Of a DNA stretch of 32,000 bases, positions 1,951 to 32,000 are shown piece by piece (within the stretch, counting starts at the first letter, position 1; each line of letters begins with the position of its first letter). The DNA lies in NCBI RefSeq assembly GCF_000936425.1, contig NZ_AVFK01000047.1, forward strand, positions 1 to 32,000. Direction: 5' to 3'. Source of the stretch: Skermanella aerolata KACC 11604 (GTDB taxonomy: Bacteria > Pseudomonadota > Alphaproteobacteria > Azospirillales > Azospirillaceae). Both the position numbers and the translations under genes were made by a program. The notes beneath the pieces are model-generated. The model was not told where the DNA came from. It ran no database searches and worked only from the letters and a program-made list of their open reading frames with translations.

Positions 1951-2014
1951 AAGAGCTCAGAAAGAAGCTTGCGGAGCACGCAACCGCATATAAGCAAACC
2001 GGGAGGTCAACGTC

Positions 2015-3595: not shown

Positions 3596-3691
3596 GCCGA
3601 ATTCTCGCCGGGCGCGATGCCGCTCCCGTCCTTCATGCGGAAACAAGCTTCCCCGCATGAAGAACGGGTGAATTTAGATGGGAGGAAGCAT

Positions 3692-4870: not shown

Positions 4871-4899
4871 TGGACCATGATCAACGGGAAGGACTCCTG

Positions 4900-5310: not shown

Positions 5311-5346
5311 AAACCAGGCGATGGGCAGATCGGGGAGGGACCAGGG

Positions 5347-5856: not shown

Positions 5857-6080
5857 GGGGCGAAATGGACACTTCGGCTGATAGGGAATCGATAGAGATC
5901 TTTCGGAACGAAAGGTTCGAAGCCTACGCCCAGGACCTCGGATTCATGTGGCGCTGGGAAATCCATTCCGACGGCAAATTGATGCAGGAGGGCTGCTCCC
6001 TCACCAAGCGCGCGGCAGACGAGGCGGTCGGCTACGTAGTCGCCTATTTCGGGCGGATCCGTGGTGTAGGTCCCGACTGA
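5853..6080 (+). CDS. mmoD: MmoD (OrfY), short 75-aa form
   Basis: The core YAQDLGFMWRWEIHSDGKLMQEGCS...VVAYFG matches the conserved MmoD core (YAKDLDFMWRW...VQEGCS...NYFG). The ATG overlaps the mmoZ stop (ATGA at 5853-5856). Confidence 0.75.
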   Translation: MRGEMDTSADRESIEIFRNERFEAYAQDLGFMWRWEIHSDGKLMQEGCSLTKRAADEAVGYVVAYFGRIRGVGPD

Positions 6081-6175
6081 TGCCCGATGCGACGAGCGCC
6101 TTTGGAAGAAACGATGGAGACCCTTCTTCGGAAAGCGTTGCCTTGAGTACCGAGAGCCGATCCGGAGACTGCGGA

Positions 6176-7210
6176 ATGTATAGAATAGAAACCATAACCG
6201 AGGACTCTCAATCCGTCGTGTTCGATTGCAGGCCCAATGAGGACGTTATCAGTGCTGCTTTCAGAAACAACGTCATACTCCTGTCGTCTTGCCGGGAAGG
6301 CGGCTGCGCAACATGCAAGGCCGAGTGTCTGGACGGCCGGTACGACCTCAAGAAATGCAGCGTCCAGGCGCTGCCTTCGGATGAGGAGGAGGCCGGCATG
6401 ATCCTGCTCTGCCGGACGTTTCCGCAGAGCGATCTCGTCATCAGCCTTCCCTATACCCATGACCGGATCTCCTTCGGCCAGGTGCAGTCGAATTGGACGA
6501 GCGAGATCATGCTGTGCCAGCAGGTCTCGTCGAACGTCGTCCGGCTGGTGCTGAACTGTCTCGACCCCATCTCCGGCACCTCTGTGGCGATGCCGTTCCT
6601 GCCCGGCCAATACGTCGATATAGAAATTCCGGGCACGCCGCTCCGCCGGTCCTTTTCCATGGCGTCGCTGCCGGGAATGGTAGACATGGAGTTCTTCATA
6701 CGCCTGCTGCCGGACGGACGTTTTTCCTGCCACCTGATGCGCAAGGCCGCTGTCGGTCAGAGATTGTCGCTGCGAGGCCCCGCCGGTGGGTTCATGCTGC
6801 GCGACAAGGGTCCACCGCGACCCTATTGCTTCGTCGCGGGCGGCACCGGCCTGTCACCGGTGCTGTCGATGGTCCGTCATTTGAAAACGGCGGGCGATCG
6901 ACAGCCGGTTCTGCTGCTGTTCGGCGTGACCCATCGGCATGAGCTGTTTTGCCAGGATGAATTGAGGCATCTGGCCGAAGACATGCCCAACCTGTCCGTC
7001 GACGTTTCGGTGATGTGCCCCGATGGCGCCTGGCCAGGCGCCGGTGGTACTGTCGTCGACCTGCTGCGCCGGCATCTGGCCGAGGCGGATGTCAAACCGG
7101 AAATCTACCTATGCGGCCCGCCTGCCATGATCGACCGCGCCGTCATCACGGCGCTAGACTCCGATATCAAAAAAGAAAATATCTATTTCGAAAAGTTTTT
7201 TCCGTCGTAG
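6176..7210 (+). CDS. mmoC: sMMO reductase (2Fe-2S ferredoxin / FAD / NADH)
   Basis: MYRIETITEDS... start is typical of MmoC, with GGAGAC 8 nt upstream. Motifs: CREGGCATCKAEC...LLCRT, RRSFSMAS, GGTGLSP. An alternative upstream ATG at 6080 overlaps the mmoD stop and would add 32 aa. Confidence 0.9.
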   Translation: MYRIETITEDSQSVVFDCRPNEDVISAAFRNNVILLSSCREGGCATCKAECLDGRYDLKKCSVQALPSDEEEAGMILLCRTFPQSDLVISLPYTHDRISFGQVQSNWTSEIMLCQQVSSNVVRLVLNCLDPISGTSVAMPFLPGQYVDIEIPGTPLRRSFSMASLPGMVDMEFFIRLLPDGRFSCHLMRKAAVGQRLSLRGPAGGFMLRDKGPPRPYCFVAGGTGLSPVLSMVRHLKTAGDRQPVLLLFGVTHRHELFCQDELRHLAEDMPNLSVDVSVMCPDGAWPGAGGTVVDLLRRHLAEADVKPEIYLCGPPAMIDRAVITALDSDIKKENIYFEKFFPS

Positions 7211-7398
7211 TAAATAATATTATACATACAAGATTTTTCACGAGAATTTTCTATATTCTAAGGTCGATTCAGTATTTTCCAAATCGAAACCTGGCATTCA
7301 ATATTGATATTTCAGGGGTCTAATTATTGATTGTCCTCTGAATATCTTACTAGTTTGATCCGTTTCAAGGATAAGAATGATCAGAATGACAAAAAAAT

Positions 7399-9603: not shown

Positions 9604-9625
9604 CGGCCTGAAGATCCAAGGGGGA

Positions 9626-11314
9626 ATGCCGGTGGCGCGGGATATCGTCTACGGCGCCGACGCGCGCCACCGGCTGATGGCCGGGATCGACCGGCTGGCC
9701 GATACGGTCGCGGTGACTCTCGGCCCTCGGGGCCGCAACGTCCTGATCGAGCACCGGACATCCGGTTTTGCTCCCCTTGCGACGCGTGACGGAGCGACAG
9801 TGGTGCGCTCCCTGACGCTGGGCGACAAGGTCGGGAACATCGGCGTCGCCTTGATCCGGCAGGTGGTCAACACGGTTTCCCGCGAGGTCGGCGACGGCAC
9901 CTCGACAACGGTCCTGCTGACCCGCTGCCTGGCGCGGGCCGCCGGCAAGGGGATGGCGGCGGGCATGAGCCCGCGCGACATCCGGGCCGGCATGGACATG
10001 GCCGGCCGCGCCGTCACTTCCGATCTGACGCGGCAGGCAAGGGACTGCGCCGGCCATAAGGCCCTGGCGCATATCGCGGCACTGGCTGCCCACGACGAGG
10101 CCGCAATCGGCGCGCTGATTTCCAAGGCGATCGAGACGGCTGGAACCGACGGTACGATCGTCATCGAGCTGGGTGCCGGGCTGACGGACGAGATCGAGCG
10201 GGTCGAGGGCATGCGATAGGAGCACGGCTATCTGTCGCCCTACTTCGTCACCGACCGGCACCGCAAGCTGGCCGAGCTTGACGATCCCTATATCCTGATC
10301 TACGACCGCCCGGTCGAAGTCTTCGACGAGCTGATACCGGTGCTGGAGTTGGTCCGCGCCAGCAACCGGTCGCTGCTGATCGTCGCCGAGAATGTCGTCG
10401 AGGCGGCGCTGCCCGGCATCCTGATCAACCATATCAGGCGGAACCTGTGCGCTGTTGCGGTCCGGGGACCGGGCCAGGGCGACAGCCGGCTCAACCGGCT
10501 GGAGGATCTGGCCGTGCTGACCGGAGGTCGAGCGATCCTGAGCTCCCAAGGGGATACCCTGACGGGTGTGACGCTGGACGATCTCGGCCAGGCCCGCAAG
10601 GCGGTGATCGGTGAGGACGATACGACCATCATCGGCGCGGCGGGCGCCGAACCGGCAATCCGGGAACGGCAGTCGGGCATCCGGTTCGAACTGGAGGCGA
10701 TCCGCAACGCCGACGGCGCCGCCGGGTCGCCCAAGGCGCGGTTCGACGATATCGAAAAGCTGGAAGAACGCCTGCGCAACCTGTCCGGCACATTGACCGT
10801 GGTGAAGATCGGCGGCATCAGCGACGTCGTGATAAAAGAGCGCCTGCAACACGCGGAAAACGCCCGCAACGCCGCCGCTGCCGCCGGAGCGGAGGGAATG
10901 CTACCGGGGGGCGGCGTCGGCCTGCTGCGCTGCGGCAGGGCGCTGACAGGCCTTAGGGGGGACAACCACGCACAGGACTACGGCATCGACATTGTCCGCA
11001 AAGCTTTGGAAGAACCCCTGACCCGCATCAGCATGAATGCCGGGTTCGAGCCTGCCGAAGTCCTGTTCAGGGTGCGCAACGCCAACAGCGAATCCTGGGG
11101 CCTCGACGCCAGGACCGGCGTCTACGGGGACCTGTTCGATCTGGGAGTCGTCGATCCGGCAAAAGTGACCAGACTGGCCTTCCAGAACGCTGTCGGAACG
11201 GCAGGAATGCTGATGACCGCCGAATGCGTGGTGACGGAGCGGCCCCTCCAGGACCCGTCGTTCGGCTATACACCGGAATGGGCGGCGCGGACCCGCGAAG
11301 ATCCGCGCCTGTAG
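9626..11314 (+). pseudogene. mmoG: GroEL-like chaperonin MmoG interrupted by one in-frame TAG (10217-10219)
   Basis: Track ORFs 9401-10219 and 10340-11314 are in the same frame. The ATG at 9626 follows AAGGGGG. Reading through gives ...ERVEGMR*EHGYLSPYFVTD..., colinear with GroEL EGMQFDRGYLSPYF. There are no other stops, and the total of 563 codons is normal for MmoG. Confidence 0.85.
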
Positions 11315-11332
11315 CCGCCGGCAGTAAATGCA

Positions 11333-11446
11333 TCAATCCTTGAGGACCCAGCGCACGAACAGATAGACGGCACTGGCGGCAATCAGTGCAGCGACGATGC
11401 CCAGCGGTGATTTCATCATGTCCACCAGTTCAAGGATCGCTCCCAT
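11333..11446 (-). CDS. Possible 37-aa single-helix membrane peptide
   Basis: Not in the track (under 60 aa). GGAGAGACGAA precedes the ATG. Translation is MGAILELVDMMKSPLGIVAALIAASAVYLFVRWVLKD. It lies 67 nt downstream of the 5-TM ORF on the same strand. Confidence 0.3.
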   Translation of the reverse strand: MGAILELVDMMKSPLGIVAALIAASAVYLFVRWVLKD

Positions 11447-11513
11447 TTCGTCTCTCCCTTTCTGTGGTCCGCCGTAAATCGGCGGGCCGGTTGATGGAAC
11501 CGTGCCGCCGCCC

Positions 11514-12110
11514 TCATGCGAGCACGACGTAGGTCTCTCTCAAAGCGGCTGCGAGCAGCAGCAGGTAGGCGACGGCAAGGCCGAAGGCGTGGTAAGGCCG
11601 TCCCGACAAGGCATGGCGATACAGATTGGCGTAGATGAGCATGTGCCACAGCACCAAAGGAAACAGCAGGAACTGTGCCAGCTCCGTGATGGGAAAAGGC
11701 GGCGGCAGCACCGTCACGAGGAGAAGCCGCAGCCCGAAGCCGGTCAGGGTGACGACGCTGCCGGCCGCCGCCAGCGCCGTCAGGGTCTGCGGTACGCGCC
11801 ACCCGTAACCACCGATCATCAGCGCCCCTGCCGTGAAAGCCACGAGCAGGAGGATGGTGACGATCGCCGCTGCGACCGCGGTCTCCATCGTTTGTTCGAG
11901 CAATACCAGGATGAACTCGCTCAAACCATAAGCCGCGAGGCTCAGCCCCAGGAGTGCCGGAGAGGATGGCAGCGCCTGCGGTCCCTGGTTCATCCGGCAG
12001 ATACCGATAAGCACCCGCGGCACAGTGATGGAAGAAGCAGGCACGGTAACAAACACCTTATCATCAGGGATGCTCAGCCTTGATAGAAAATGACATGAAT
12101 CTTGAAGCAA
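11514..12110 (-). CDS. Hypothetical multi-pass (about 5 TM) membrane protein, Yip1-like topology
   Basis: 198-aa ORF with GC-rich codon usage and a series of hydrophobic helices. The true start may be the internal M at 11993. No family was recognised with confidence. Confidence 0.45.
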   Translation of the reverse strand: MLQDSCHFLSRLSIPDDKVFVTVPASSITVPRVLIGICRMNQGPQALPSSPALLGLSLAAYGLSEFILVLLEQTMETAVAAAIVTILLLVAFTAGALMIGGYGWRVPQTLTALAAAGSVVTLTGFGLRLLLVTVLPPPFPITELAQFLLFPLVLWHMLIYANLYRHALSGRPYHAFGLAVAYLLLLAAALRETYVVLA

Positions 12111-12243
12111 GTCGAGTGCTTATAGCATTCACTAACTGTATAAACTTCCGACATGCTAAATAAATAGTGTTTCTGCATGAGGATAAGGATGCCGATTTCT
12201 GATAGTATGTTCATTTAATGTACAATTTTGTTTTCAGAAGATA

Positions 12244-12268
12244 CACCTGTTTAGAACTTTGACAGGTG
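12244..12268. promoter_or_regulatory. Inverted repeat CACCTGT-N11-ACAGGTG upstream of pmoC
   Basis: Perfect 7-bp arms, read directly. It lies about 75 bp upstream of the sigma-54-like element. The arm ACACCTGT is the reverse complement of the ACAGGTGT core of the mmoX palindrome. Confidence 0.35.
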
Positions 12269-12340
12269 CCATCTCATGGTGACCCAGGGTTTTGAAGCAG
12301 ATGATAAACATTTCCAGGAAAAAAGGGTCGTCGCAACAAC

Positions 12341-12356
12341 AGGCATGCATATTGCT
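12341..12356 (+). promoter_or_regulatory. Sigma-54-like -24/-12 element AGGCAT-GCATA-TTGCT upstream of pmoC
   Basis: GG at 12342-12343 and GC at 12354-12355 have exact consensus spacing, and the -12 TTGCT is perfect. It lies about 190 nt upstream of the pmoC ATG. Confidence 0.45.
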
Positions 12357-12544
12357 TAATTGTCCCTGCGTAAGTCGGACACTCCTAAAAGCGGCCAAGG
12401 ACGATCATCGAGCGCCGACGGCCTCGAATGACTGCAAGCCGCTTGAAACGGCCGACCAGACGACGATCGACCGCATATCTTCACCCGGGAGCGAAGCGGC
12501 GCTCCATCATCCGAAGGTGACAATAAAATGCACGGAGGTCACAG

Positions 12545-13459
12545 ATGAGCAACAGTATCACTGACCGCATCATCGACACGGTCGGGAACGCCGCAACCGG
12601 CGTTTTCGGGGCCAGGAGCCGTACTGAGGCCGGGGAGGCGAAGCAGGAACGCGACACCGCACTCAGTGAAGACCTGTTCAAGGCCAAGACGGTCTATATA
12701 GGCCTGGGGGTGATGTTCGCCTTCTATTTCTTCATCCGCATCTATGAACAGATCTTCGGCTGGTCGGCCGGTCTCGATGCATTCAGCGACGAATTCCAAA
12801 CCTATTGGATGACGATGCTTTGGATCGAGCTTCCGCTAGAGGGTCTGGCCTTCTTCGGCCTGATGGGCTACCTGTGGAAGACCCGCGACCGGGAGGTCAA
12901 CAAGGTCGAACCGCGCGAGGAACTGCGCCGGCACATGACCCTGCTGACATGGCTGGTCATGTACGCTTCGGCCCTGTACTGGGGCGCCAGCTTCTTCACG
13001 GAGCAGGACGGCACGTGGCACCAGACCGTGGTACGCGACACCGACTTCACGCCCAGCCACATCATCGAGTTCTACCTGAGCTATCCGATCTACATCATCA
13101 TGGGCTGCGGCGCCTTCATGTATGCCAAGACCCGGATTCCGATGTTCGCCAACGGCTACTCGGTGGCGTTCCTGATCCTGTTCATCGGACCGTTCATGAT
13201 CTTCCCCAATGTCGGCCTGAACGAGTGGGGCCATACCTTCTGGTTCATGGAAGAACTGTTCGTGGCCCCCCTGCACTGGGGCTTCGTGTTCTTCGGCTGG
13301 ATGGCGCTCGCGGTCTTCGGCGTCACCCTCCAGATCCTCGACCGCGTCCGGGAACTGGCCGTCGGCTACGTTCAGGACTGCACCTTCGACGAGACCGCGG
13401 CCGTGGCTGCCACCGGTCAGACGATCGAAGGCGCAGCGGTGCCGAAGGCGGCCGAATAA
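12545..13459 (+). CDS. pmoC: Particulate methane monooxygenase subunit C
   Basis: 304 aa with a GGAGG RBS. Conserved metal-site residues are present: EQDGTWHQ...TPSHIIEFY and NEWGHTFWF...PLHWGF. It carries a C-terminal extension of about 40 aa relative to typical PmoC of about 255-260 aa. Confidence 0.95.
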   Translation: MSNSITDRIIDTVGNAATGVFGARSRTEAGEAKQERDTALSEDLFKAKTVYIGLGVMFAFYFFIRIYEQIFGWSAGLDAFSDEFQTYWMTMLWIELPLEGLAFFGLMGYLWKTRDREVNKVEPREELRRHMTLLTWLVMYASALYWGASFFTEQDGTWHQTVVRDTDFTPSHIIEFYLSYPIYIIMGCGAFMYAKTRIPMFANGYSVAFLILFIGPFMIFPNVGLNEWGHTFWFMEELFVAPLHWGFVFFGWMALAVFGVTLQILDRVRELAVGYVQDCTFDETAAVAATGQTIEGAAVPKAAE

Positions 13460-13481
13460 TCGTCATCGATCGATCTCGACA

Positions 13482-13505
13482 GTAGCCCGCTTCAGGGCGG
13501 GCTAC
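13482..13505 (+). promoter_or_regulatory. Perfect 9-bp stem / 6-nt loop hairpin (GTAGCCCGC ttcagg GCGGGCTAC) in the pmoC-pmoA spacer
   Basis: Read directly. No U-tract follows, so it is more likely an mRNA processing or stability element than an intrinsic terminator. Confidence 0.5.
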
Positions 13506-13631
13506 CTCCTCCATCGGCAACAACGAAGGCAAAGAGGGCATCTTCGACCCCGGCGACCGGCGCTCTTGGCGGAAGCCTCGGAAAAACGAAAACCAATCAA
13601 AGGGCAGGAAACATCGAAGGAGAGCAATACA

Positions 13632-14447
13632 ATGTCAACGCAAGACCCGACTGCTTCGGATACCTTTCAGACCGCCTATGGCGGGACGACGGTCGAAACC
13701 GGACCCAAGGTCACCGGGCCGGCGCTCAAGTCCAAGGGCGAAGCCCTGGCGCTGGGCCGCACCATCGACTGGCTGCTGCTGTTCATCCTGTTCTTCGTCT
13801 GCCTCGCGTCGTTCCACATCCATGCGATGCTGACGATGGGCGACTGGGACTTCTGGGTCGACTGGAAGGACCGCCGCTATTTCCCGACCGTTCTGCCGAT
13901 CGTCCTGATCGCTTTCGCTGCCGCCGGACAAGCGTTCTTCTGGGAGAAGTTCCGGCTGCCGTTCGGGGCGACGTTCATGGTCGTCGGCCTGATCTTCGGT
14001 GAGTGGATCAACCGGTACTTCAATTTCTGGCTTTGGACCTATTTCCCGATCAACATGGTCTGGCCGACAATCCTGATCCCCAGCGCCCTGTTCCTCGACA
14101 TCGTGCTGCTCATCACCCGGAGCTACCTGATCACCGCGATCGTCGGGGCGATGGGCTGGGCGCTGCTGCTGTACCCCTCCAACTGGCCGGTCCTGGCGCA
14201 GTTCCACGTCCCACTCGAGAAGGACGGCCTGATCATGACGCTCGCTGACCTGATCGGCTTCGAATATGTCCGTACCGGCACGCCGGAATACATCCGCATG
14301 GTCGAACGCGGCACCATGAGGACCTTCGGCAAGGACGTCGTGCCGGTTTCAGCGTTCTTCGCGGGCTTCATTTCGATGATCGTGTACTTCGTCTGGGCAT
14401 TCGTCGGCCGCTGGTTCTCCACGACGCGCTTCATCGGCCGCATCTAG
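13632..14447 (+). CDS. pmoA: Particulate methane monooxygenase subunit A
   Basis: Internal ATG of track ORF 13566-14447, with GAAGGAG upstream; 271 aa. The core GDWDFWVDWKDRR...GEWINRYFNFW.WTYFPIN...TGTPEYIRMVE.GT.RTFGKDV.PVSAFF is classic PmoA. The N-terminus is about 20 aa longer than usual. Confidence 0.95.
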   Translation: MSTQDPTASDTFQTAYGGTTVETGPKVTGPALKSKGEALALGRTIDWLLLFILFFVCLASFHIHAMLTMGDWDFWVDWKDRRYFPTVLPIVLIAFAAAGQAFFWEKFRLPFGATFMVVGLIFGEWINRYFNFWLWTYFPINMVWPTILIPSALFLDIVLLITRSYLITAIVGAMGWALLLYPSNWPVLAQFHVPLEKDGLIMTLADLIGFEYVRTGTPEYIRMVERGTMRTFGKDVVPVSAFFAGFISMIVYFVWAFVGRWFSTTRFIGRI

Positions 14448-14548
14448 CGGCCCTTGGATGAACGGCTGCCGGTGCTGACACACCGACAGCCGCCCAGTGG
14501 ATCCAACGGTACGGATAGGCATGCACCATAAACGTCGGAGGAAAAGTT

Positions 14549-15832
14549 ATGAGGGGTTGGCAGAAGTTCAAGTCCATCGCGCGCAAAATCATGACACGCC
14601 GTGTCTTTGGACTGGCGATGGGAGCCGCGGTGGGACTGACGGCGAACGTGATGACGACGGCGCCGGCGGAGGCCCACGGCGAGAAGTCGCAGATGGCGTT
14701 CCTTCGGATGCGCACCGTCCAGTGGTACGATCTGAAGTGGTCGAAGACCGACGTCAACGTCAACGATGTCGTCGAGATATCCGGCAAGTTCAATGTCTTC
14801 TCCAATTGGCCGCAGGCCGTGATGAACCCGGACGTCTCGTTCCTGAACGTCGGCGAACCCGGTCCGGTATTCGTCCGCGAGGCCGCCTATATCAACGGTC
14901 AGCCGGTTCCCCGGTCGTTCTCTCTGACGCCCGGCGAGCGGTACGATTTCAAGATCCTGCTGCGGGCGCGGCGGGCCGGCGACTGGCACGTCCATACCCT
15001 GATGAACGTCGAGGGCGGCGGCCCCATCATCGGGCCGGGCGAGTGGCTCAAGATCAAAGGATCGATGGCCGACTTCATCAACCCCGAGACCACGCTGGAC
15101 GGGCGCAAGGTCGATATCGAGACCATGGGCATCGGCACGATCTACGGCTGGCACTTCCTCTGGTTCGTCGCCGGCGTGGCCTGGATCGGCTACTGGTTCT
15201 CACGCGGCGGCTTCGTCGGGCGGTACTTCGGCGTGGTCGCGGGCAAGGGCGACACGATGATCTCGCCCAAGGACGAGAAGATCGCCTTCGCGTCGCTGGC
15301 GGCGACGCTGGTCGTGGTCCTGGTCGGGTACAGCATGGGAGAATCCGGCAGCCCGCGCACGCTGCCGCTCCAGGCGGGCCTCCTGAACATCCCGGCGTCC
15401 GATCCGGCTCTCTACCCGAAGGACGTTTCCATCAAGTACGAGCGGGCGACCTACAAGGTCCCCGGCCGAGAACTCGACGTCACCTTGCAGATCACGAACA
15501 ACGGCACCTCGCCGCTGCGGATCGGCGAGTTCGCGACGGCGGGTGTCCGTTTCCTCAATCCCGATGTCATGAAGGAGCCGGTGAACTATCCGGACTACCT
15601 GCTGGCGCCCCAGGGCCTGTCGCTGTCCGACGCACAGCCGATCCAGCCGGGCACCACCAAGACCCTGGTCATCAAGGCGCAGGACGCGGCCTGGGACGTC
15701 GAGCGGCTTTCCGACCTCTACTACGACACGGACAGCAGCATCGGCGGCCTTCTGTTCCTGTTCGACGAACAGGGCAACCGCCACGTGCTCGAGATCGGCG
15801 GCCCTGCCGTTCCCGATTTCCAGACGACCTGA
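14549..15832 (+). CDS. pmoB: Particulate methane monooxygenase subunit B
   Basis: 427 aa with a GGAGGA RBS. The signal peptide ends AEA/HGEKSQ (canonical N-terminal His). The WHVH motif (GDWHVHTLMNV) is present. Confidence 0.95.
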   Translation: MRGWQKFKSIARKIMTRRVFGLAMGAAVGLTANVMTTAPAEAHGEKSQMAFLRMRTVQWYDLKWSKTDVNVNDVVEISGKFNVFSNWPQAVMNPDVSFLNVGEPGPVFVREAAYINGQPVPRSFSLTPGERYDFKILLRARRAGDWHVHTLMNVEGGGPIIGPGEWLKIKGSMADFINPETTLDGRKVDIETMGIGTIYGWHFLWFVAGVAWIGYWFSRGGFVGRYFGVVAGKGDTMISPKDEKIAFASLAATLVVVLVGYSMGESGSPRTLPLQAGLLNIPASDPALYPKDVSIKYERATYKVPGRELDVTLQITNNGTSPLRIGEFATAGVRFLNPDVMKEPVNYPDYLLAPQGLSLSDAQPIQPGTTKTLVIKAQDAAWDVERLSDLYYDTDSSIGGLLFLFDEQGNRHVLEIGGPAVPDFQTT

Positions 15833-15869
15833 ACCGGCACTGCTCGAACGTCCGCACTTGATGGGAAAT

Positions 15870-15906
15870 GCCGTCCTGGATCGCTGAAACGGCGGCTCAG
15901 GACGGC
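15870..15906 (+). terminator. Stem-loop after pmoB (GCCGTCCTG-N19-CAGGACGGC) followed by GATTTCTTC
   Basis: Perfect 9-bp arms, read directly, with a weak T-run. It may be a partial terminator or attenuator between pmoCAB and the downstream copper genes. Confidence 0.45.
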
Positions 15907-15984
15907 GATTTCTTCACCGCGGGGATGCCGCGCACCGGCTTCGATGCCCGCGCGTCTTCACCGCCCAGCCTTCGGTCAAGGATC

Positions 15985-16650
15985 ATGCATGTGCCCGTGA
16001 AAAAAACTCTCAGCCGGGCGATCGGCGCCGCTGCGCTTGTCCTGACCCTGCTGCATGCCCCGGATATCCAGGCTCACGGAGGGCTCAGCGTCGAAGAGGA
16101 TACCTGCGTCCTTCGCCTGGGACCGTACAAGATGCACTTCGTCGGCTACCAGCCCGACAGCACCAAGCAGGAATTTTGCGAAGACATACCTGAAACCGGC
16201 CACACCATCATCGTTCTCGACTACTTCGATCCGGCTTTGCGCAGAATGACGGCCGAAGTCAGGATCATCAAGGACGTCGGCGCACCCGAAACCGGCGACT
16301 TGACGCCGATCACGGTATTCCATCTGCCGCCGGCGCTTCATCCGACCGGCACCTTCAATTTCCAGTACAATTTCCCGCAGCCGGAAAAGTTCATCGGGCT
16401 GATAACGATCCGGGATGGCCAACGGGAATACGTGTCCCGTTTCCCGTTCTCGGTCGGCATGCCGACTTCAAACTGGAGCCTTACCCGCTATGCCGCGATC
16501 TTCGCGGGGCTGGTCATGGCGCTGCTGCTTTACTTCTGGTACCGCCGGCAACATCACACCGTCAAGGTCGCCAGCCCTGCGGGCGCTTCGCCGGACGACG
16601 GATGGGTGCGCGATATTCCGCCGCCGGACCCCAGGCGTGGGCCGCTTTAG
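15985..16650 (+). CDS. Exported, C-terminally membrane-anchored protein with predicted mature N-terminal His; occupies the pmoD position
   Basis: Internal ATG of track ORF 15868-16650, with AAGGA upstream. The signal peptide ends IQA/HGGLSVEEDTCVLRLGPYKMHF. A domain of about 150 aa contains 2 Cys and several His/Met. A TM helix (YAAIFAGLVMALLLYFWY) lies near the C-terminus. This architecture matches PmoD/AmoD-type proteins; homology is not verified. Confidence 0.6.
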   Translation: MHVPVKKTLSRAIGAAALVLTLLHAPDIQAHGGLSVEEDTCVLRLGPYKMHFVGYQPDSTKQEFCEDIPETGHTIIVLDYFDPALRRMTAEVRIIKDVGAPETGDLTPITVFHLPPALHPTGTFNFQYNFPQPEKFIGLITIRDGQREYVSRFPFSVGMPTSNWSLTRYAAIFAGLVMALLLYFWYRRQHHTVKVASPAGASPDDGWVRDIPPPDPRRGPL

Positions 16651-22079: not shown

Positions 22080-22535
22080 ATGGAAGGACGCGGCAGGCGC
22101 ATGGATCAGAGCGGAACCACGGGGCGCGTGTCCGGGACACGACGCATGGGATGGATCGGCATCGTCGCCGTCCTTGCCATGCTCGTGCGGGCGCTGGTCC
22201 CGGAGTTCTCCATGGCGCTTGCCGGCCCCGCCGGGCAGCATCCCGTCGAGCGTCCGATTGCCGCCGTTTCGGCCGACTGCCATGACGGCGCTTCCTTGGC
22301 CCAGCCGGGTCCCAAGCCCGCTTACGATCCCGGTTCCGATCCTGGTCCCGGCCAGCCATATGGCCCCCATTGTCCGTTCTGTCTGGTTCAGCATGCGGCC
22401 GCCCTGCCCCCGCCGCCGCAGCCCGAAATCTTCATTCCCGCTGAGGACGCCAACTCGCCGTCGCTGCCGGAAACGGATGCAGCACCTCAGCGCCGGCTGC
22501 CGAGCCCGATCCAGCCGAGGGCGCCGCCGGTCTGA
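22080..22535 (+). CDS. DUF2946-like small exported/membrane protein (HCPFC motif)
   Basis: N-terminal hydrophobic segment WIGIVAVLAMLVRALV, a Pro-rich middle, and a GPHCPFCLVQHAA motif characteristic of DUF2946. The start is uncertain (22080, 22101 or 22146). Confidence 0.6.
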   Translation: MEGRGRRMDQSGTTGRVSGTRRMGWIGIVAVLAMLVRALVPEFSMALAGPAGQHPVERPIAAVSADCHDGASLAQPGPKPAYDPGSDPGPGQPYGPHCPFCLVQHAAALPPPPQPEIFIPAEDANSPSLPETDAAPQRRLPSPIQPRAPPV

Positions 22536-24006: not shown

Positions 24007-24036
24007 GCCACGTCGGGTCTTACTACCCGACGTGGC
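24007..24036. terminator. Perfect 12-bp stem / 6-nt loop hairpin between convergent genes (GCCACGTCGGGT cttact ACCCGACGTGGC)
   Basis: Read directly. It sits between the PepSY stop (23983) and the csp1 stop (24047), so it is likely a bidirectional terminator. Confidence 0.6.
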
Positions 24037-24046
24037 GAGCCTGGGG

Positions 24047-24529
24047 TCACGCGTCGACCTTGCGGCACTCCTCCGCGCAGGAAGCGCAGGCGTCCGCACA
24101 GGCCTTGCAGGTCGCATGCTTCTCGTGTTTCCGGCATTCCTTCTCGCAATCCTGGCAGACTTGCAAAACCACCTTGCTCATGGCCGGGACGTAGCTGGAG
24201 CCCATGGCGGAAAGCTCGGCGAGGCTGCCTGTCGCGGCTATCAGTTCGCGAACCTTGCTTGCACAGACTGCAAGGGTGGTGTCACCCCCCGCGAAGGTTT
24301 CGAGGCAATGATTAAGGCATACTTCGCCCGTCGTGACGCAGTGGGTGGCCTCCTTCATGAGGTCGCCGTACTTCAGCTTGCCCATGCCGGCGTGGTCATG
24401 CCCGTGCTGGTGTTCGTGCACATGCTCGCCGCCTGCCGGCTTTTCCGGCTGCTGTGCGGCAGCTATCGCGGTCGTAGCAAGGACGCTGGTCGCCCCCGCC
24501 GTCAGGAAGATGCGTCGGTCCATTTCCAT
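24047..24529 (-). CDS. csp1: Csp1-type four-helix-bundle copper storage protein, Tat-exported
   Basis: ATG at 24529 with GGAGG 6 nt upstream (the track ORF start at 24718 is too early). Tat motif MDRRIFLTAGA. His-rich stretch HVHEHQHGHDH. Twelve Cys in heptad-like spacing end ...CKACADACASCAEECRKVDA, closely matching my memory of Methylosinus trichosporium Csp1 (...CKACGEACQACAEECHKVAA). Confidence 0.85.
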   Translation of the reverse strand: MEMDRRIFLTAGATSVLATTAIAAAQQPEKPAGGEHVHEHQHGHDHAGMGKLKYGDLMKEATHCVTTGEVCLNHCLETFAGGDTTLAVCASKVRELIAATGSLAELSAMGSSYVPAMSKVVLQVCQDCEKECRKHEKHATCKACADACASCAEECRKVDA

Positions 24530-24635
24530 AAGCCACCTCCATGTCAAAGTGCGTAAGTTCGGGGTAATCTCCCGCAGTCGGCCGGAGCCGCTGTTGGTCC
24601 AGCGATTCCGGCTGCTGAGGCTATTCAGCCTTGCG

Positions 24636-25490
24636 CTAAGCGTCGATTGACCCGGTGGCGCGACCTTGCTTGCAGTAAGCTGGGTCGACAAATGATGCCC
24701 GCTGGTTCTGCTCGGCAAGGAATGCTGGCGGCAGATCGGATACTTCGACGATTTGGGCGGGTGCCACGGCGATCATCGAGCGCAGCAAGCTGCGGAGTTC
24801 CCGAATGTTGCCGGGCCAGGGATGGGTCATGAAGATTTCCCAGACTTCCTTGCTGAGATATTTGGCTGACTTCACGCTTAAGGCTTCCTGTTCAACATGC
24901 AGGAGATGCCGGATCAGCGCTCTCCTGTCCGGTCGCTCGCGCAGCGGCGGCAGACTGATCTGAGCGCCATTGAGCCAGTCGTACAAGTCGCGGCGGAACG
25001 AACCTTCACATACCGCATCCGACAGAGTCCGATCGGTCATCGCAATGACTTGAACATCGATGGTAATGCGATGTCCCGATTTCCGAAATACGGTCTGCCG
25101 GTACTCGAGGGCCCGGAGAAGCAGCACCTGGAGTTCCGGAGTGAGGTCGCCGACGGCATCGAGCAGCAAGGTGCCTTTGTGCGCATTTTCGAACGCGGGT
25201 GGCGCCATACCGCCCTTTGTGGCGCCGAGCAGTTTTTCCGCTATGGATCGGGCCGGCAGCGTGTCGAAGCCGAGCCGAACCAGAGGCCGATGGCGGCGCA
25301 GCCCTCGGGCATGTATCTGGGTGACGATATAGTCTTTACCGACGCCCGATTCCCCGGACACCAGGATGGGAAGAGTGGCGGCCTGTGCATGCTTCGTGCA
25401 GGCAACGGCCCGGTCGAGTATTGTATCCCGAAATTGGACATTTTGAAAAACCGGGAGGAACGGCATTGATTGAGCGAGTTGGATCGCCAT
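24636..25490 (-). CDS. Stand-alone degenerate AAA+ domain, paralog of the MmoR central domain (no sensor, no GAFTGA loop, no HTH)
   Basis: Walker A GESGVGKDY is identical to MmoR. A long colinear match is RRDLYDWLNGAQISLPPLRERPD...HPWPGNIRELRS versus MmoR RRDLYYRLNGAQIWLPPLRERPD...HPWPGNIRELRN. The GAFTGA region is replaced by LGATKGGMAPP and Walker B reads LLLDAVGD. The protein ends without a Fis-type HTH. The start at M 25490 (ACGGAG upstream) is assumed; the ORF is open to 25667. Confidence 0.7.
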   Translation of the reverse strand: MAIQLAQSMPFLPVFQNVQFRDTILDRAVACTKHAQAATLPILVSGESGVGKDYIVTQIHARGLRRHRPLVRLGFDTLPARSIAEKLLGATKGGMAPPAFENAHKGTLLLDAVGDLTPELQVLLLRALEYRQTVFRKSGHRITIDVQVIAMTDRTLSDAVCEGSFRRDLYDWLNGAQISLPPLRERPDRRALIRHLLHVEQEALSVKSAKYLSKEVWEIFMTHPWPGNIRELRSLLRSMIAVAPAQIVEVSDLPPAFLAEQNQRASFVDPAYCKQGRATGSIDA

Positions 25491-25686
25491 CGGATGTGAC
25501 TCCGTTCGAACTGACAGGCATGACGAAAGGTTCGGGGAGCTGCCGAAGCGCTGACGGCCGTGCGTGACGGTGGCGCTTGCGGGCGCTGAGCAGCGCCCGG
25601 TGATGACCATCGACGACCATGCTCGACGTTTGTGCTCCGCAGAACCGACGGTGCGGTTTCCAGACATTTCCGCAGCAGGAAGCTTT

Positions 25687-26079
25687 TCAGGTGCGCTTAT
25701 CCGGCGGTGGAGCCCGGCTCCTCACGCAGCTCAAGAAGTGCATTGCCGCAGGAGCGCCCATTTTGGCCGGCAGCGATGGCGAAATCCCGGTTAAGCTCGC
25801 GGAACGAGCGCCAGCGTTGTGGGCTGGCGGCAGCAGCGGGGCCGCCTGGACCACGCAGAATGGGCACAGGCCAGCGTGGTCATGGGTCACCGGCTTCGAC
25901 GGGGCACCCGGGTCGCTATCGTGGGAGGGGTGTCCCGCGACGTTGTCAGGACGAAAATCGAGGTCGACCGGTACAATGTTCCGGAACGCCATGGCCAGAT
26001 CGGGCACGGCGATTTGGATGAGAAGGGCAAAGACACCCAACCATGCAGTCAGCCGGTGGCATGCAGCGTGATGCTTCAT
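25687..26079 (-). CDS. Second DUF2946-like protein (LCPFC motif)
   Basis: The internal M at 26079 gives MKHHAACHRLTAWLGVFALLIQIAVPDLAMA (signal-like). The motif HAGLCPFCVVQAAPLLPP parallels GPHCPFCLVQHAAALPP of the first copy. Confidence 0.55.
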   Translation of the reverse strand: MKHHAACHRLTAWLGVFALLIQIAVPDLAMAFRNIVPVDLDFRPDNVAGHPSHDSDPGAPSKPVTHDHAGLCPFCVVQAAPLLPPAHNAGARSASLTGISPSLPAKMGAPAAMHFLSCVRSRAPPPDKRT

Positions 26080-26116
26080 CGGGTCCTGCTTCACTCCATC
26101 CTGTCGCACGGGAGGC

Positions 26117-26132
26117 TGCGAAAGCACCGCCA
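26117..26132 (-). promoter_or_regulatory. Weak sigma-54-like element TGGCGG-TGCTT-TCGCA (minus strand) ahead of the DUF2946-2 / AAA+ / csp1 unit
   Basis: GG/GC spacing is exact, but there are 3 mismatches to the core consensus. It lies about 40-55 nt upstream of the 26079 start. Confidence 0.3.
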
Positions 26133-26452
26133 AGAAAGATGTTTATCGCCGATTGGTGATCGTTGTTGAGTTGGATATGCTTCGATTTGATCACACCAGT
26201 AAAGCTAGCAATAGTCATGCCGATATTCGGAGGCATTGGGACCGGCGGTAGTACTTCGACAACAGGCTGTCCGATATAAAATTGCTCAACACCAAGGCTA
26301 TGTTTCACTTGTGTAATCTGAATACAGTTGTTCAACAATCAAACAGAATTGTTCAATTTTTTGATAGATGTAAATCGGCGCGTCTTCGACCGGCGATCGG
26401 GATTGTCACGACAACGGTGGTGCAGCGACAGCGGTGACGATAATCTGCCAGG

Positions 26453-26584
26453 ATGCAGCCGCTCTCCTATGCCCGTCACCATTTTCCACCCGCCGCCATC
26501 CAGCACGCTGTGTGGCTGTGGTGCATGGAGGTCGGAGAGCACGGACTTCTGCCCAGGTTCGGTGATCTTCAAGCGGCGCGGACG
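26453..26584 (+). pseudogene. N-terminal fragment of an IS6-family transposase, cut off by the IS903-like element
   Basis: Translation ...ARHHFPPAAIQHAVWLW...GDLQAAR resembles the conserved IS6-family start (RHRFPPEVIQHAIWLY...VEDLLAERG). It stops exactly at the neighbouring IS terminus. A possible IR lies near 26398-26415. Confidence 0.35.
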
Positions 26585-27690
26585 GACGTTGGTGCAGAAA
26601 TCAGCGGGCGGGCAGACTTCGCCCATTGCCACGGCGGTCAGGCAATCCGACGGGACACCGGCATGCCGAGGTCGGTCATGATGTTGATGACCTTGCATCC
26701 GGCGGTTGCTTCGACCTTCTGGGCACGCAGACTCCGGGCCCGCAGGCTGCGGCCGATCAGGGCCTTGTACCGAAACACCGCCACTTCGACCAAGGATCTT
26801 TTCCCGTAGCCGACGGCCCGCTGCCAACCCAGCCGTCCGTGGTCGGCGATCCACTGGATATGGCGGTCGCGCTGGGTCGGGTCGGTGTCCACCTTGGCGC
26901 TCAGCACCGCGGTCGAACGGGGCGGGATGACCACAGCGACGTCAGGCGTATGGTCGGTGACGGACCGGTATGTCGGCTCCCCGTCGTAGGCGCCGTCAGC
27001 CAACACCGCGGAGATCGGGCGGTCGATCTGCTCGAGCAGCGGACCGACCAGGGACGCGTCGCCGTCGTCCGTGGTGGTCAGCTCAGAGGCGAGGATCTCA
27101 CCGCTCCCGGGATCGACCGCCAAGTGCAGTTTCCGCCAGGTCCGATGTGGCTTCCCGCCGTGCTTCTCGTGCAGCCATTCACCGGCTCCGACCACCTTCA
27201 GGCCGGTGCTGTCGATCACGACGTGGACCGGTTCCTTCGCCTTCCTCAGCGCCGTCGCGACACCCAGGCCGGCGCTACGGCGCGAGAGCGTTGTGTGGTC
27301 CGGAACCGGCAACTCCAGGCCGAGCAGGCCCATGACCGAGCTCAGCAAGCCTTCGGTCTGGCGCCACGGCCGGCCGAACGCCAACCTCAGCATCAGCCCG
27401 GTCTCGATGGCGACGTCGGAATAGGCCCGCGGCCGACCCCGCCGCCCGGTCGCCGCCGGCATCCAAGCCGCGATTGCTTCGGGCGTCACCCACACAGTCA
27501 GGCTGCCGCGCCTACGCAGCGCCGCGTCGTACTCGGCCCAGTTCTCGATTCTGTACCGGGCTTTCGGGATCCTGTGACGACGCGGTTCATTCGCCTTGTA
27601 CGGCATGCGGCACTCTGCTCCAGCGGGCTATCTCTATACCCACCTGCCCATCGCCGCGATAGCCCTCATCGCCATTTGTGCACCAACGTC
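26585..27690 (-). mobile_element. Intact IS5-family (IS903-group) insertion sequence, 1106 bp
   Basis: The terminal inverted repeats are GACGTTGGTGCAGAAAT (26585-26601) and the reverse complement of 27674-27690 (GACGTTGGTGCACAAAT), identical at 16/17 positions. They contain an AAATCAG-type end like IS903. There is a single transposase ORF. The flanking 9-mers differ (gcgcggacg vs tcggtgcaa), so there is no target-site duplication. Confidence 0.8.
26638..27606 (-). CDS. IS5/IS903-group DDE transposase
   Basis: 322 aa. It is colinear with IS903 transposase as I remember it (NW.EYD.AL..RGSLT.W......AW...RGRP..YSD.AI.T......F.L..RQ.EG...S; VIDSTGLKV.G.GEW...KHG...R.WRKLHLAVD; ADGAYD; GMP.S.RIA end). 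Confidence 0.9.
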   Translation of the reverse strand: MPYKANEPRRHRIPKARYRIENWAEYDAALRRRGSLTVWVTPEAIAAWMPAATGRRGRPRAYSDVAIETGLMLRLAFGRPWRQTEGLLSSVMGLLGLELPVPDHTTLSRRSAGLGVATALRKAKEPVHVVIDSTGLKVVGAGEWLHEKHGGKPHRTWRKLHLAVDPGSGEILASELTTTDDGDASLVGPLLEQIDRPISAVLADGAYDGEPTYRSVTDHTPDVAVVIPPRSTAVLSAKVDTDPTQRDRHIQWIADHGRLGWQRAVGYGKRSLVEVAVFRYKALIGRSLRARSLRAQKVEATAGCKVINIMTDLGMPVSRRIA

Positions 27691-30146: not shown

Positions 30147-30457
30147 CCCACTTCGTTCCGTCCGCCCGGCAATCCATCGATCGCGTACCAGTTATTACGT
30201 TCTGAATCCTACAAATCCATGAACATTCAATAATAAAAACTGGCATGCTAGTGTTAACACACAATATAATTTTCTACCAAATAATGAAAAATTTTCCATT
30301 ACATTTCAATACAATAAAAACGTTTGCCTTTATATTTGATTTGCATTACGTAGTTCGCGACATAGGTGTCTATTGAAAGTGTCGAGCTGACACAGATTTT
30401 CAAATCATTGGTCAAGATCGGAAAACAGCGGCCCAAACGTCCCAAGGAAAGTTCAGA

Positions 30458-32000
30458 ATGTTCGCCACCATGAATCGCCGCGATTTGATGGCTATGCTGT
30501 GTTCCGGTGCGATGCTCGGCATGCTTGGCTATCCGAAAGCTGCTCTTGCCTGCGGCAGCACTCTGCTGAGAGTGGGCGTCGATGCATTTCCCCGGACGCT
30601 GAACCCGATCGAAGTGCGCGATCTCGTCGCCGGCCGGATATTGGTGGCCATGTACGAGGGGCTGACGAGGATCGATCGGACGGGAAAGGTCAAGCCGGCG
30701 CTGGCCGAAAGCTGGGAGCCTGCGGACGACGGCCGCGCCTGGCGCTTTCACCTGCGCCGTGGCGTCCGCTTTCACACCGGACGTGACTTCTCGGCCGAAG
30801 ACGTGAAAAAGACCTTCGAAGCGTTGCTCGAGAATCCGGCCGTGCCCAGCTTCGCCGTTCCTGGCCTGAAGAAGGTACTGGGGTACGAGGATGTGGTCCG
30901 GAAGAAGGGCGGACCCCTTCGAGGCGTCGTGGTCGTGGACGAGCACACGGTGGACATCCGGTTCTCCGAACCTTGCGCCATCTTTCCGTTCTTCAAGTTC
31001 CCGATCGCCGACATCGATTTCATCAGGTCGCAGGGTCCTGATTGGTACACCAGGTATTCGGCCGGAACTGGGCCATATCGCTTCTCCGCCTGGGTGCCCG
31101 GAGCCTATGTCGACCTGGTGGCGCATGATGGCTGGTGGGACGGCGACCCCGTGCATGACAAGGTTTCGTTCGTCGTGACCGGCGGGCGCGAAGCCTCCGT
31201 CACCGCCTTCAACAACAACGAGGCCGATTTCGTGCTGGTCGATGCTGACCTGGTACGAAAGACCGTCGACGGAAGCGGCTTCCAGCGGTCCTTGATATCC
31301 TGCCCACGCATGCAGACCCGTTCCGTCGCACTGCTCCAGGATCGCTATCCGCCGTTCCGCGACAAGCGCGTGCGCTTGGCAATGTCGATGATGATCGATC
31401 GCGAAGCTGTTGCCGAACGCTTCTTTCGGGGGATGGCCGTCGTCCACAACGGGCTCGTCCCACCCCTGCTTCTCGCCGACGCCGAGCATGAGCCCCTGGC
31501 ATATGATCCGCTGGGTGCCGAGAGGCTGCTGGCCGAGGCCGGGTTTCCCGGAGGCAAAGGAATGCCGCCTTTCCAGGTTACGACCTGGCCGGAATTTCAC
31601 CAGGAGTTTGCCTACTATGTTTCCCAGTGGAGCAACATCGGCATTCCGGTCGAGCTGAATGTCGTCCACAAGACCAAGTTCTACGAGAACTCCAGTCGAG
31701 GCGAGTACGTCGCCTACTACATGGGCTGGACCGCCGCCTATCCCGACGCGATGAACTTCCTTGGCGAGTTGTTCGGCGGCGACAGTCCCTTCAACCAGAT
31801 CGGCTGGCGGAACGCCAAGTTCGACCGCATCATCGGACAGGCGAATGCCGTCACCGATCCCACGGCACGCGAGGCCCTGTATCGGACAGCCGAGCGGATT
31901 GTGCTGGATGATTTCCCGATCCTCCCTCTCGTCGTACCCGACTACGTCGCACTTCGCTGCAACCCCATTGCAGATCAGCACCTGTCACCTTTCGGCGGAT
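30458..32000 (+). CDS. Family-5 (peptide/nickel/opine, DppA/OppA-like) periplasmic solute-binding protein, Tat-type signal; 3' end beyond the window
   Basis: Open frame with no stop from ATG 30458 (or 30470) to the window end (514 codons); not in the track for that reason. Translation begins MFATMNRRDLMAMLCSGAMLG...LRVGVDAFPRTLNPI...LVAMYEGLTRIDRTGKVKPALAESWE...WRFHLRRGVRFHTGRDFSAEDV, the classic SBP_bac_5 pattern. Minus-strand ORF 30299-31981 is its antisense shadow. Confidence 0.8.
   Translation, partial: MFATMNRRDLMAMLCSGAMLGMLGYPKAALACGSTLLRVGVDAFPRTLNPIEVRDLVAGRILVAMYEGLTRIDRTGKVKPALAESWEPADDGRAWRFHLRRGVRFHTGRDFSAEDVKKTFEALLENPAVPSFAVPGLKKVLGYEDVVRKKGGPLRGVVVVDEHTVDIRFSEPCAIFPFFKFPIADIDFIRSQGPDWYTRYSAGTGPYRFSAWVPGAYVDLVAHDGWWDGDPVHDKVSFVVTGGREASVTAFNNNEADFVLVDADLVRKTVDGSGFQRSLISCPRMQTRSVALLQDRYPPFRDKRVRLAMSMMIDREAVAERFFRGMAVVHNGLVPPLLLADAEHEPLAYDPLGAERLLAEAGFPGGKGMPPFQVTTWPEFHQEFAYYVSQWSNIGIPVELNVVHKTKFYENSSRGEYVAYYMGWTAAYPDAMNFLGELFGGDSPFNQIGWRNAKFDRIIGQANAVTDPTAREALYRTAERIVLDDFPILPLVVPDYVALRCNPIADQHLSPFGG

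Follow-up and report, generated by a model that had tools for sequence, protein, structure and literature searches.

A putative stand-alone pseudo-ATPase core of the MmoR/MimR family encoded beside csp1 in Skermanella aerolata

We analyzed a stretch of 32,000 nucleotides from Skermanella aerolata KACC 11604 (positions 1 to 32,000 of contig NZ_AVFK01000047.1, assembly GCF_000936425.1), hereafter the window. Three open reading frames (ORFs) share its minus strand across 24047-26133, in the order DUF2946-like gene, AAA+ gene and csp1. The middle gene, which is the subject of this work, encodes a protein that by sequence belongs to the MmoR/MimR family of activators and that appears to have kept the AAA+ fold while losing the residues on which ATP hydrolysis and sigma-54 contact depend. 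An earlier note on this DNA had described the same row of three genes, and the ORFs and family matches agree with it, the DUF2946 match lying below the Pfam cut-off. The unit comprises the following features:

24047-24529, minus strand: csp1, 160 aa, match to TIGR04401; cysteine-rich four-helix-bundle copper storage protein exported by twin-arginine translocation (Tat); strong GGAGGTG ribosome-binding site.
24636-25490, minus strand: AAA+ gene, 284 aa, stand-alone AAA+ core; RefSeq WP_169789457.1.
25687-26079, minus strand: DUF2946-like gene, 130 aa from its ATG, ORF open to 26133; signal-anchor-like N-terminus and CPFC motif.
24008-24035, no strand assigned: GC-rich inverted repeat of 10 bp, CCACGTCGGG-N8-CCCGACGTGG, read directly from the sequence.

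Csp1 is a true member of its family (NCBIfam TIGR04401 at 151.7 bits, cut-off 100), with a twin-arginine leader (DRRIFL) and 12 cysteines, and its homologues are annotated as Tat-exported cysteine-rich four-helix-bundle or Csp1 family proteins. The DUF2946-like protein scores 19.8 bits against PF11162 (gathering cut-off 23.7) and is 30% identical (E 2e-6) to the product of a clear DUF2946 gene at 22080-22535; both carry the CPFC motif. The AAA+ gene starts with an ATG at 25490, preceded 9 nt upstream by a plausible Shine-Dalgarno sequence (GGAG). Its ORF remains open further upstream to 25667, over an extra stretch without homology to anything. The exact protein is recorded in S. aerolata as WP_169789457.1, annotated as a "sigma 54-interacting transcriptional regulator". 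The intergenic gaps measure 196 nt between the DUF2946-like and AAA+ genes and 106 nt between the AAA+ gene and csp1. A scan of the unit for sigma-70 promoters and terminators returned one intragenic promoter-like match and no terminator between the three genes. The inverted repeat at 24008-24035, which sits between the convergent csp1 and PepSY_TM genes, has no T tract and was missed by the terminator scan; it probably forms a hairpin that marks the end of the csp1 transcription unit.

Two domains account for the AAA+ protein: Sigma54_activat (PF00158, 100.3 bits, cut-off 20.2, E 1.3e-28) and AAA_lid_14 (PF25601, 58.9 bits, cut-off 27, E 4.6e-16). In Pfam and NCBIfam it matched only sigma-54-activator or AAA-type families, and no anti-activator family. 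As the earlier note had seen, the protein is colinear with the core of the MmoR-like activator encoded in the same window (45% identity over 265 aa, E 5e-76, no frameshift), and its Walker A and sensor II regions are nearly the same as those of that activator, the strings GESGVGKDY and HPWPGNIRELR being identical in both. An AlphaFold model of the protein is confident (predicted local distance difference test, pLDDT, 87.6; predicted template modeling score, pTM, 0.82), its confidence dropping only where remnants of the L1 and L2 loops lie, and its best Foldseek matches are the AAA+ domains of LuxO, NtrC1, NtrX, FleQ and PspF. The elements on which the following comparison rests are:

7498-9603, plus strand: full-length MmoR-like activator, called with a length of 701 aa; has GSFTGA, Walker B DE, an arginine finger and HTH_8.
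25332-25355, minus strand: Walker A, G46-ESGVGK-D53; kept, and identical to the window MmoR.
25197-25226, minus strand: remnant of the L1/GAFTGA loop, G89-ATKGGMAPP-98, placed by alignment; a 7-residue deletion follows directly.
25155-25160, minus strand: Walker B, D111-A112; catalytic Glu replaced (DE to DA).
24975-24980, minus strand: D171-W172, Tyr-Arg in the family, placed by alignment; Tyr to D171 and arginine finger Arg to W172.
24693-24950, minus strand: alpha-helical lid subdomain with sensor II GNIRELR, R230; best-conserved part of the AAA+ protein.

Motif states were judged by alignment with 20 family members retrieved by exhaustive HMMER search and with activators from the PDB, and this alignment bears out the replacement of GAFTGA and the change of Walker B from DE to DA that the earlier note had read from the sequence. 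GAFTGA has become GGMAPP, with Phe replaced by M95, Thr by A96 and Gly by P98 at positions that are invariant in the 20 relatives; position 95, the former Phe of GAFTGA, is Met or Ile among alleles (M95I). The change of the Walker B Glu to A112 is the one engineered in NtrC1 E239A (PDB 3M0E). A regular-expression search found the Walker B DE pair in all others of 267 retrieved relatives, leaving the AAA+ protein alone without it. W172 aligns with the trans-acting arginine finger (NtrC1 R299, PspF R168). Further losses, which the earlier note had not listed, affect the switch Asn (now G74), the L2 loop (P135F and G137K) and the sensor I Asn (now D153). The nucleotide-binding elements are kept: Walker A G46-K52, Walker B D111 and sensor II R230. 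The lid is 55% identical to that of the window MmoR, as against 48% for the average family member, and 70% identical at the nucleotide level over 224 nt.

The protein also lacks the flanking domains of an activator, again in agreement with the earlier note. No MimR_N-type sensor domain was found, the protein beginning 8 residues before the core alignment, and there is no HTH_8 match, about 18 residues lying beyond the aligned core. No remnant of an N-terminal domain or of a helix-turn-helix (HTH) was detected in any frame of the flanks, and we reject truncation by frameshift or nonsense mutation on that ground. The roles of the Walker B Glu, the arginine finger and the L1 and L2 loops in the enhancer-binding proteins of bacteria (bEBPs) are established (PMC7175178), and read against that mechanism the motif losses predict a protein without ATP hydrolysis, without trans-acting firing of a neighboring subunit and without sigma-54 contact. 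We infer that the AAA+ protein is unable to perform any of these three functions, and predict that it does not activate the sigma-54 RNA polymerase. With its P-loop, Walker B Asp, sensor II and lid intact, it should still bind nucleotide.

The closest sequence relatives of the AAA+ protein are MmoR/MimR-type activators of soluble di-iron monooxygenase operons, at 43-47% identity, and in the two that were looked up the gene adjoins a monooxygenase reductase or a GroEL-like gene. The best matches of the N- and C-terminal thirds likewise fall in the MmoR/MimR family, and those of a central module (residues 69-146) are generic activators at about 40% identity. We found no better donor for this module among 394 retrieved proteins and reject its import by recombination. 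Identity to the window MmoR, at 47%, is barely above that to other members (35-46%), and no uniquely shared, derived residues stand out between the two. In neighbor-joining (NJ) trees the AAA+ gene falls outside all 19 ingroup family members sampled (225/300 and 208/300 bootstraps), with or without the fast-evolving module, long-branch artefacts being possible chiefly in the full-length tree. The placement and the lack of unique shared residues lead us to reject a recent duplication of the window mmoR; the view that the gene is a copy of the mmoR located 15 kb away is not supported.

The gene carries a mosaic of constraint. Identity to MmoR at the first, second and third codon positions is 0.58, 0.72 and 0.41, and the ratio of non-synonymous to synonymous divergence (dN/dS, NG86 method) is about 0.31, with dS near saturation. 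Expressed relative to the family average, protein identity to MmoR amounts to 0.40-0.59 across the segments of L1, Walker B and L2, to 0.85-0.94 in the rest of the alpha/beta part and to 1.13 for the lid. Codon-level distances were computed between the AAA+ gene and the three full-length regulators for which DNA was available. Outside residues 69-146, dN lies between 0.42 and 0.56 (dN/dS 0.19-0.32), close to the values of the regulators among themselves (0.42-0.53, dN/dS 0.30-0.46). Inside the module, dN of the AAA+ gene reaches 0.68-0.80 (dN/dS 0.59-0.70), about five times that between the regulators (0.13-0.16, dN/dS 0.18-0.26). The ratio of dN in the module to dN in the rest is accordingly 1.3-1.6 for the AAA+ gene and 0.30-0.33 for the regulators, with non-overlapping bootstrap intervals. 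Equal dN outside the module and a fivefold excess inside it indicate that the two parts were under different constraint over the same period.

The protein has retained 72% of 54 family-invariant positions versus 29% of variable ones, and each of the 15 lost invariant positions belongs to L1, Walker B, L2 or the arginine finger. The gene shows one in-frame deletion of 7 codons, and no frameshift or stop across 855 nt. When we simulated neutral evolution from the MmoR core, using substitutions only and counting frame loss from stop codons alone, 7.6%, 2.9% and 1.0% of runs remained stop-free at 72%, 60% and 47% residual identity, respectively. We argue from these comparisons that the ATPase and sigma-54-remodeling module was probably freed from constraint long ago and that the remainder has been under ordinary purifying selection; decay of the whole gene appears unlikely.

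By its distribution the gene is an orphan, confined to one species. In databases amounting in all to about 15 billion proteins, no relative of the AAA+ protein above 50% identity was found: a word-indexed search of 5.8 billion clustered proteins returned a sole cluster at a minimum of 90% identity, whose 5 members are S. aerolata entries or Logan assemblies of two sequencing runs, and the next matches were full-length activators at 43-45% identity. An index-free, exhaustive HMMER search of 1.84 billion representatives left the protein alone in its 50% cluster, and scans of GTDB genomes and JGI metagenomes gave no close relative. The earlier note had pointed to dN/dS and to conservation in relatives as ways to judge the gene; the latter yielded no orthologues, while the former gave mosaic constraint against full-length regulators, in a gene without frameshift.

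The AAA+ gene is not a conserved neighbor of csp1 either: none of the three nearest csp1 contexts that we examined contains it. The full-length Csp1 homologue nearest to ours (50% identity), and the nearest one with a long contig, is encoded in Logan assembly SRR22387790 (L004, positions 1-10220), directly after a methanobactin operon comprising a TonB receptor, MbnP, an MbnH-like protein, MbnA, MbnB and MbnC. The order there is Csp, DUF2946, one unknown ORF, CopCD and Sco1, and an AAA+ gene is missing from it. Csp, DUF2946 and CopCD therefore recur together as a copper module, and the AAA+ gene is a lineage-specific addition to a recurring Csp-DUF2946 pairing. Since the gene occurs only in S. 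aerolata-type sequences, model methanotrophs must switch without it; as a gene known from no other sequenced organism, it is not the general copper switch, and the proposal that it is the missing link in copper repression of the soluble methane monooxygenase (sMMO) is not supported.

The setting of the unit nonetheless makes a frame of sMMO, particulate methane monooxygenase (pMMO) and copper a reasonable one, as the window holds a true sMMO operon, pmoCAB and copper genes. The operon encodes alpha, beta, MmoB, gamma and reductase components, and its MmoX scores 1084 bits against MmoX of Methylosinus trichosporium OB3b. The complete sMMO-type operon, mmoR, mmoG and pmoCAB lie within 14 kb (2015-15832). 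Beyond pmoCAB the island continues with genes for a multicopper oxidase, DUF1775, a CopC-CopD fusion, GFA, DUF2946 and PepSY_TM, and after the csp1 unit with an IS5-type transposase and a hybrid histidine kinase. Within this island the AAA+ gene is surrounded by copper genes, about 15 kb away from both mmoR and mmoG, and does not adjoin the sMMO operon. The CuMMO of this strain was noted in 2015, before any study of hydrocarbon growth (PMC4678205), and the species is listed as a putative methanotroph in a 2026 preprint (10.64898/2026.02.02.703227). The literature that we found mentions the CuMMO and a putative pMMO of S. aerolata and does not mention the sMMO cluster; the species is not an established methanotroph.

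Further features bear on the regulation of the island:

9626-11314, plus strand: mmoG, GroEL-like; in-frame TAG at 10217-10219, inside the conserved EGM..GYLSPYF motif.
1856-1881, plus strand: candidate MmoR enhancer upstream of mmoX, perfect inverted repeat ATTGTCA-N12-TGACAAT, unique in the window.
1935-1950, plus strand: sigma-54-like site at mmoX, TGGCAT-N5-ATGCA; good match, about 55 nt downstream of the inverted repeat.
26117-26132, minus strand: sigma-54-like element named in the earlier note, TGGCGGTGCTTTCGCA; 3 mismatches, chance level.
26207-26222, minus strand: somewhat better sigma-54-like site, CGGCATGACTATTGCT; 2 mismatches, GG and GC kept, not significant.

The repeat at 1856-1881 and the site at 1935-1950 form a candidate MmoR enhancer and promoter of mmoX. 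The weak sigma-54-like element that had been placed ahead of the csp1 unit fared less well: at 3 mismatches, the window contains 103 such matches, against 120.7 expected from shuffles. We therefore reject the idea that the unit has, upstream of it, a sigma-54 promoter or an MmoR enhancer in common with mmoX, the matches being at or below chance and the mmoX repeat unique. The sequence AGGCATGCATATTGCT at 12341-12356 (plus strand), about 190 nt upstream of pmoC, is also sigma-54-like, with 2 mismatches; across the window, matches of this kind do not exceed chance.

The same two mmoG fragments are called in an independent assembly, GCA_007991775.1 (2 samples). The GC content at third codon positions (GC3) of the two halves is still high, at 0.82-0.86, so that the nonsense lesion looks recent. 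Upstream of the csp1 unit, the window shows an AT-rich stretch (26140-26640, GC 0.54) in which the motif TTGAACAA is repeated. The stretch adjoins the gene for the IS5-type DDE transposase (26638-27606, minus strand), about 500 nt upstream of the unit, which places the unit at a probable rearrangement boundary of the island.

Some observations concern neighboring genes. Compared with the allele in a Logan assembly (L001), the window shows 3 non-synonymous differences (T11I, G15S and S55N) and 0 synonymous ones in the DUF2946-like gene, 1 non-synonymous and 2 synonymous in csp1, and 1 non-synonymous and 3 synonymous in the PepSY_TM gene. Two ORFs have no family match: one of 260 aa directly after pmoB (15868-16650, plus strand), searched in Pfam and NCBIfam, and one of 560 aa beside the hybrid histidine kinase (30299-31981, minus strand), searched in Pfam. 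About 320 nt (5857-6175, plus strand) separate the gamma-subunit gene from the likely start of the reductase (MYRIETI...), the listed reductase ORF merely prolonging its frame upstream through this interval. In model operons the interval between these two genes is occupied by mmoD.

We favor, at a probability of about 0.4, the reading that the gene encodes a real, selectively maintained, stand-alone pseudo-ATPase core of the MmoR/MimR family that acts negatively on a full-length activator, with MmoR as its partner. Such a protein would keep its fold, its nucleotide pocket (Walker A, Walker B Asp and sensor II) and its lid. It would have given up hydrolysis (Walker B Glu, switch Asn and sensor I Asn), the firing of a neighbor (arginine finger), sigma-54 contact (GAFTGA of L1, and L2), DNA binding and signal binding. 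Its action would then be one of protein on protein, in which the nucleotide-bound AAA+ protein associates with a full-length activator, for which the MmoR of the island is the only candidate in view. Within a mixed ring it might serve as a dominant-negative dead subunit, a decoy or a cap; a ring of this kind would be unable to complete the cooperative ATPase cycle, so that the output of the activator would fall. The position of the gene between the DUF2946-like gene and csp1 suggests that the level of the protein would follow that of the copper-handling unit, and it is this position that suggests a link to copper. We infer nucleotide binding, mixed oligomers, the partnership with MmoR, the negative sign and the dependence on copper in the same conditional sense. 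The complete chain, in which the dead subunit is co-expressed with Csp1 and enters or caps MmoR rings, thereby stopping sMMO transcription while copper is being stored, would have long odds against it.

Precedents exist for the separate steps. The hetero-hexamer of HrpR and HrpS shows that mixed assemblies form, and its "partial paralogue degeneration" has been described as creating a new control point (PMC3105312). VnfA paralogues take part in the metal-dependent control of alternative nitrogenases (PMC9542535). Subunit-mixing experiments with PspF indicate that subunits within one ring have distinct roles (PMC3467059), and the Walker B Glu-to-Ala variant of NtrC1 gives a crystallizable, ATP-bound ring assembly, a heptamer (PDB 3M0E; PMC7175178).

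The AAA+ protein differs from every known system with which we compared it. It has the strings GESGVGKD(Y), LNGAQ.xLPPLRERPD and HPWPGNIRELR in common with MmoR/MimR activators; unlike them, it has no MimR_N-type sensor, HTH_8, GSFTGA, Walker B Glu or arginine finger, and its gene lies away from the sMMO operon and branches outside the sampled members. FleT of Cereibacter sphaeroides, FlgR of Helicobacter and CtcC of Chlamydia also have no C-terminal HTH, and FleT works with full-length FleQ. Unlike the AAA+ protein, these three keep GAFTGA and ATPase activity and activate transcription, and FleT retains GAFTGA and the catalytic residues as a co-activating partner. GAFTGA and the ATPase residues are kept in HrpR and HrpS as well. 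Members without GAFTGA that act at sigma-70 promoters include TyrR, VpsR and the NtrC of Rhodobacter capsulatus, and the VpsR structure 7v2b is among the structural and PDB matches of the AAA+ protein. Caulobacter NtrC is likewise devoid of GAFTGA and acts at sigma-70 promoters (10.1101/2023.06.06.543975). These four proteins resemble ours in having lost the sigma-54 contact loop within a recognizable AAA+ core, but they have retained their sensor and DNA-binding domains and are themselves active on DNA.

HrpR and HrpS of Pseudomonas syringae are sensor-less paralogous cores that are active only as a mixed hexamer; unlike the AAA+ protein, which is fully degenerate and without a DNA-binding domain, both keep their HTH and are jointly required for activation (PMC3105312). 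In Azotobacter vinelandii, interactions between the paralogues VnfA1, VnfA2 and VnfA3 set a metal-dependent hierarchy of isoenzymes, the same logic as that proposed in the earlier note for copper and sMMO/pMMO, but all three are DNA-binding activators that co-activate genes at target promoters, with no dead subunit among them (PMC9542535). NtrC1 E239A (PDB 3M0E) and PspF E108Q and R168A carry the same single changes and are subunits that bind ATP and are defective in hydrolysis; they served to trap assemblies and in subunit-mixing experiments (PMC7175178, PMC3467059). These are laboratory constructs with an intact L1, whereas the changes of the AAA+ protein are natural and combined.

Several observations weigh against a maintained negative partner of MmoR. 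The lack of orthologues beyond S. aerolata-type sequences means that conservation across species cannot be shown, and an insertion sequence (IS) element adjoins the unit. The AAA+ protein is not, by sequence, specifically related to the window MmoR, and the arginine-finger helix residues that it has lost could also have weakened ring assembly. With intergenic gaps of 196 and 106 nt, the AAA+ gene and csp1 need not be co-transcribed, the sigma-54-like sites at the unit are at chance level, and the mmoX repeat, which occurs once in the window, is absent from the unit. With a GC3 of 0.67, the AAA+ gene is the lowest of the 23 genes in the window, a hint of weak expression or relaxed synonymous constraint. 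Alleles of the window and of two Logan assemblies (L001 and L003) differ at 6 positions in all, 3 synonymous and 3 non-synonymous, and the resulting polymorphism ratio (pN/pS 0.34, P = 0.18) is uninformative. Finally, model methanotrophs lose mmo transcription when mmoG or mmoR is mutated (PMC7994243), so that the in-frame TAG in mmoG may mean that the circuit is inactive in the type strain.

Much of this would also fit a functionless relic, a piece of a gene of the MmoR family left behind at the island's IS-bounded edge that stays open by chance in GC-rich DNA or that lost selection recently, after service as a regulator. The orphan distribution, the loss of all catalytic and sigma-54-contact motifs, the lowest GC3 in the window, the transposase gene about 500 nt upstream and the mmoG nonsense codon, evidence that decay is in progress within this island, all point that way. 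Long spurious ORFs are common in the window, a chance of 1-8% that no stop arises under neutrality is not negligible, and the allele data are compatible with neutrality. A relic is not expected, however, to show a dN outside residues 69-146 no higher than that between working regulators next to a module about five times more changed, a retention of 72% at invariant positions versus 29% at variable ones, or second codon positions far better kept than third ones. Bacterial pseudogenes gain indels quickly, and no frameshift has entered these 855 nt; the domain boundaries are clean, without remnants in the flanks, and the gene combines a confident fold prediction with a plausible Shine-Dalgarno sequence. 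We regard a relic as unlikely, although it deserves serious attention, and the decaying duplication put forward in the earlier note is weakened, constraint being mosaic and not absent.

Nor need a maintained protein act negatively on MmoR. It might be a positive or neutral partner, for instance a decoy for an inhibitor of the MmoR core, a competitor for the MmoG chaperonin or an obligate co-subunit in the manner of HrpR/HrpS or FleT/FleQ. Its surfaces outside L1 and L2 are kept at the family level, with an especially MmoR-like lid, PspA, HrpV, NifL and FleN provide examples of proteins that target the AAA+ cores of activators, and co-dependent paralogues and accessory proteins have precedents (PMC3105312, PMC9542535, PMC12998190). 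But MmoR has no known inhibitor and none can be seen in the window, the co-activating partners described so far keep GAFTGA and the catalytic residues (PMC3105312), and a subunit without the catalytic Glu and arginine finger is expected to lower the ATPase activity of a ring, all of which makes a positive or neutral role distinctly improbable. A new, sigma-54-independent role within the operon and unlinked to MmoR, such as nucleotide-gated cytoplasmic binding of pre-Csp1 before Tat export or of the DUF2946 protein, would suit the gene order DUF2946-AAA+-csp1 on a shared strand, where csp1 alone is followed by a hairpin, and the fast evolution of the L1-to-L2 face (pairwise dN/dS 0.6-0.7) could reflect remodeling for a new partner. 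We hold this to be very improbable: csp1 genes in the other contexts examined have no such neighbor, a pairwise dN/dS below 1 in the module gives no positive evidence of adaptive change, and a hydrolysis-dead AAA+ protein would be unable to do mechanical work.

Sigma-54 activators without a DNA-binding domain are already on record, as are ones without GAFTGA. In the literature that we found, there is no description of a natural core-only protein in which sigma-54 loop, catalytic Glu and arginine finger have all been lost and that is yet constrained at the protein level outside the affected module. Occurring in a single species, the gene does not explain the classical copper switch, and the mmoG of the island is broken in the sequenced strain. 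If it does mix with a full-length activator, the AAA+ protein would parallel, in a bacterium, the paralogue-derived "microprotein" inhibitors, and would be a natural equivalent of the trap mutants with which these ATPases have been dissected. An island that combines sMMO, pmoCAB and copper genes, in a recently listed putative methanotroph, may also give a handle on metal-dependent isoenzyme choice. Should the proposed mechanism hold, the protein would be a paralogue-derived brake tying copper status to the choice between sMMO and pMMO in a non-canonical, putatively methanotrophic alphaproteobacterium.

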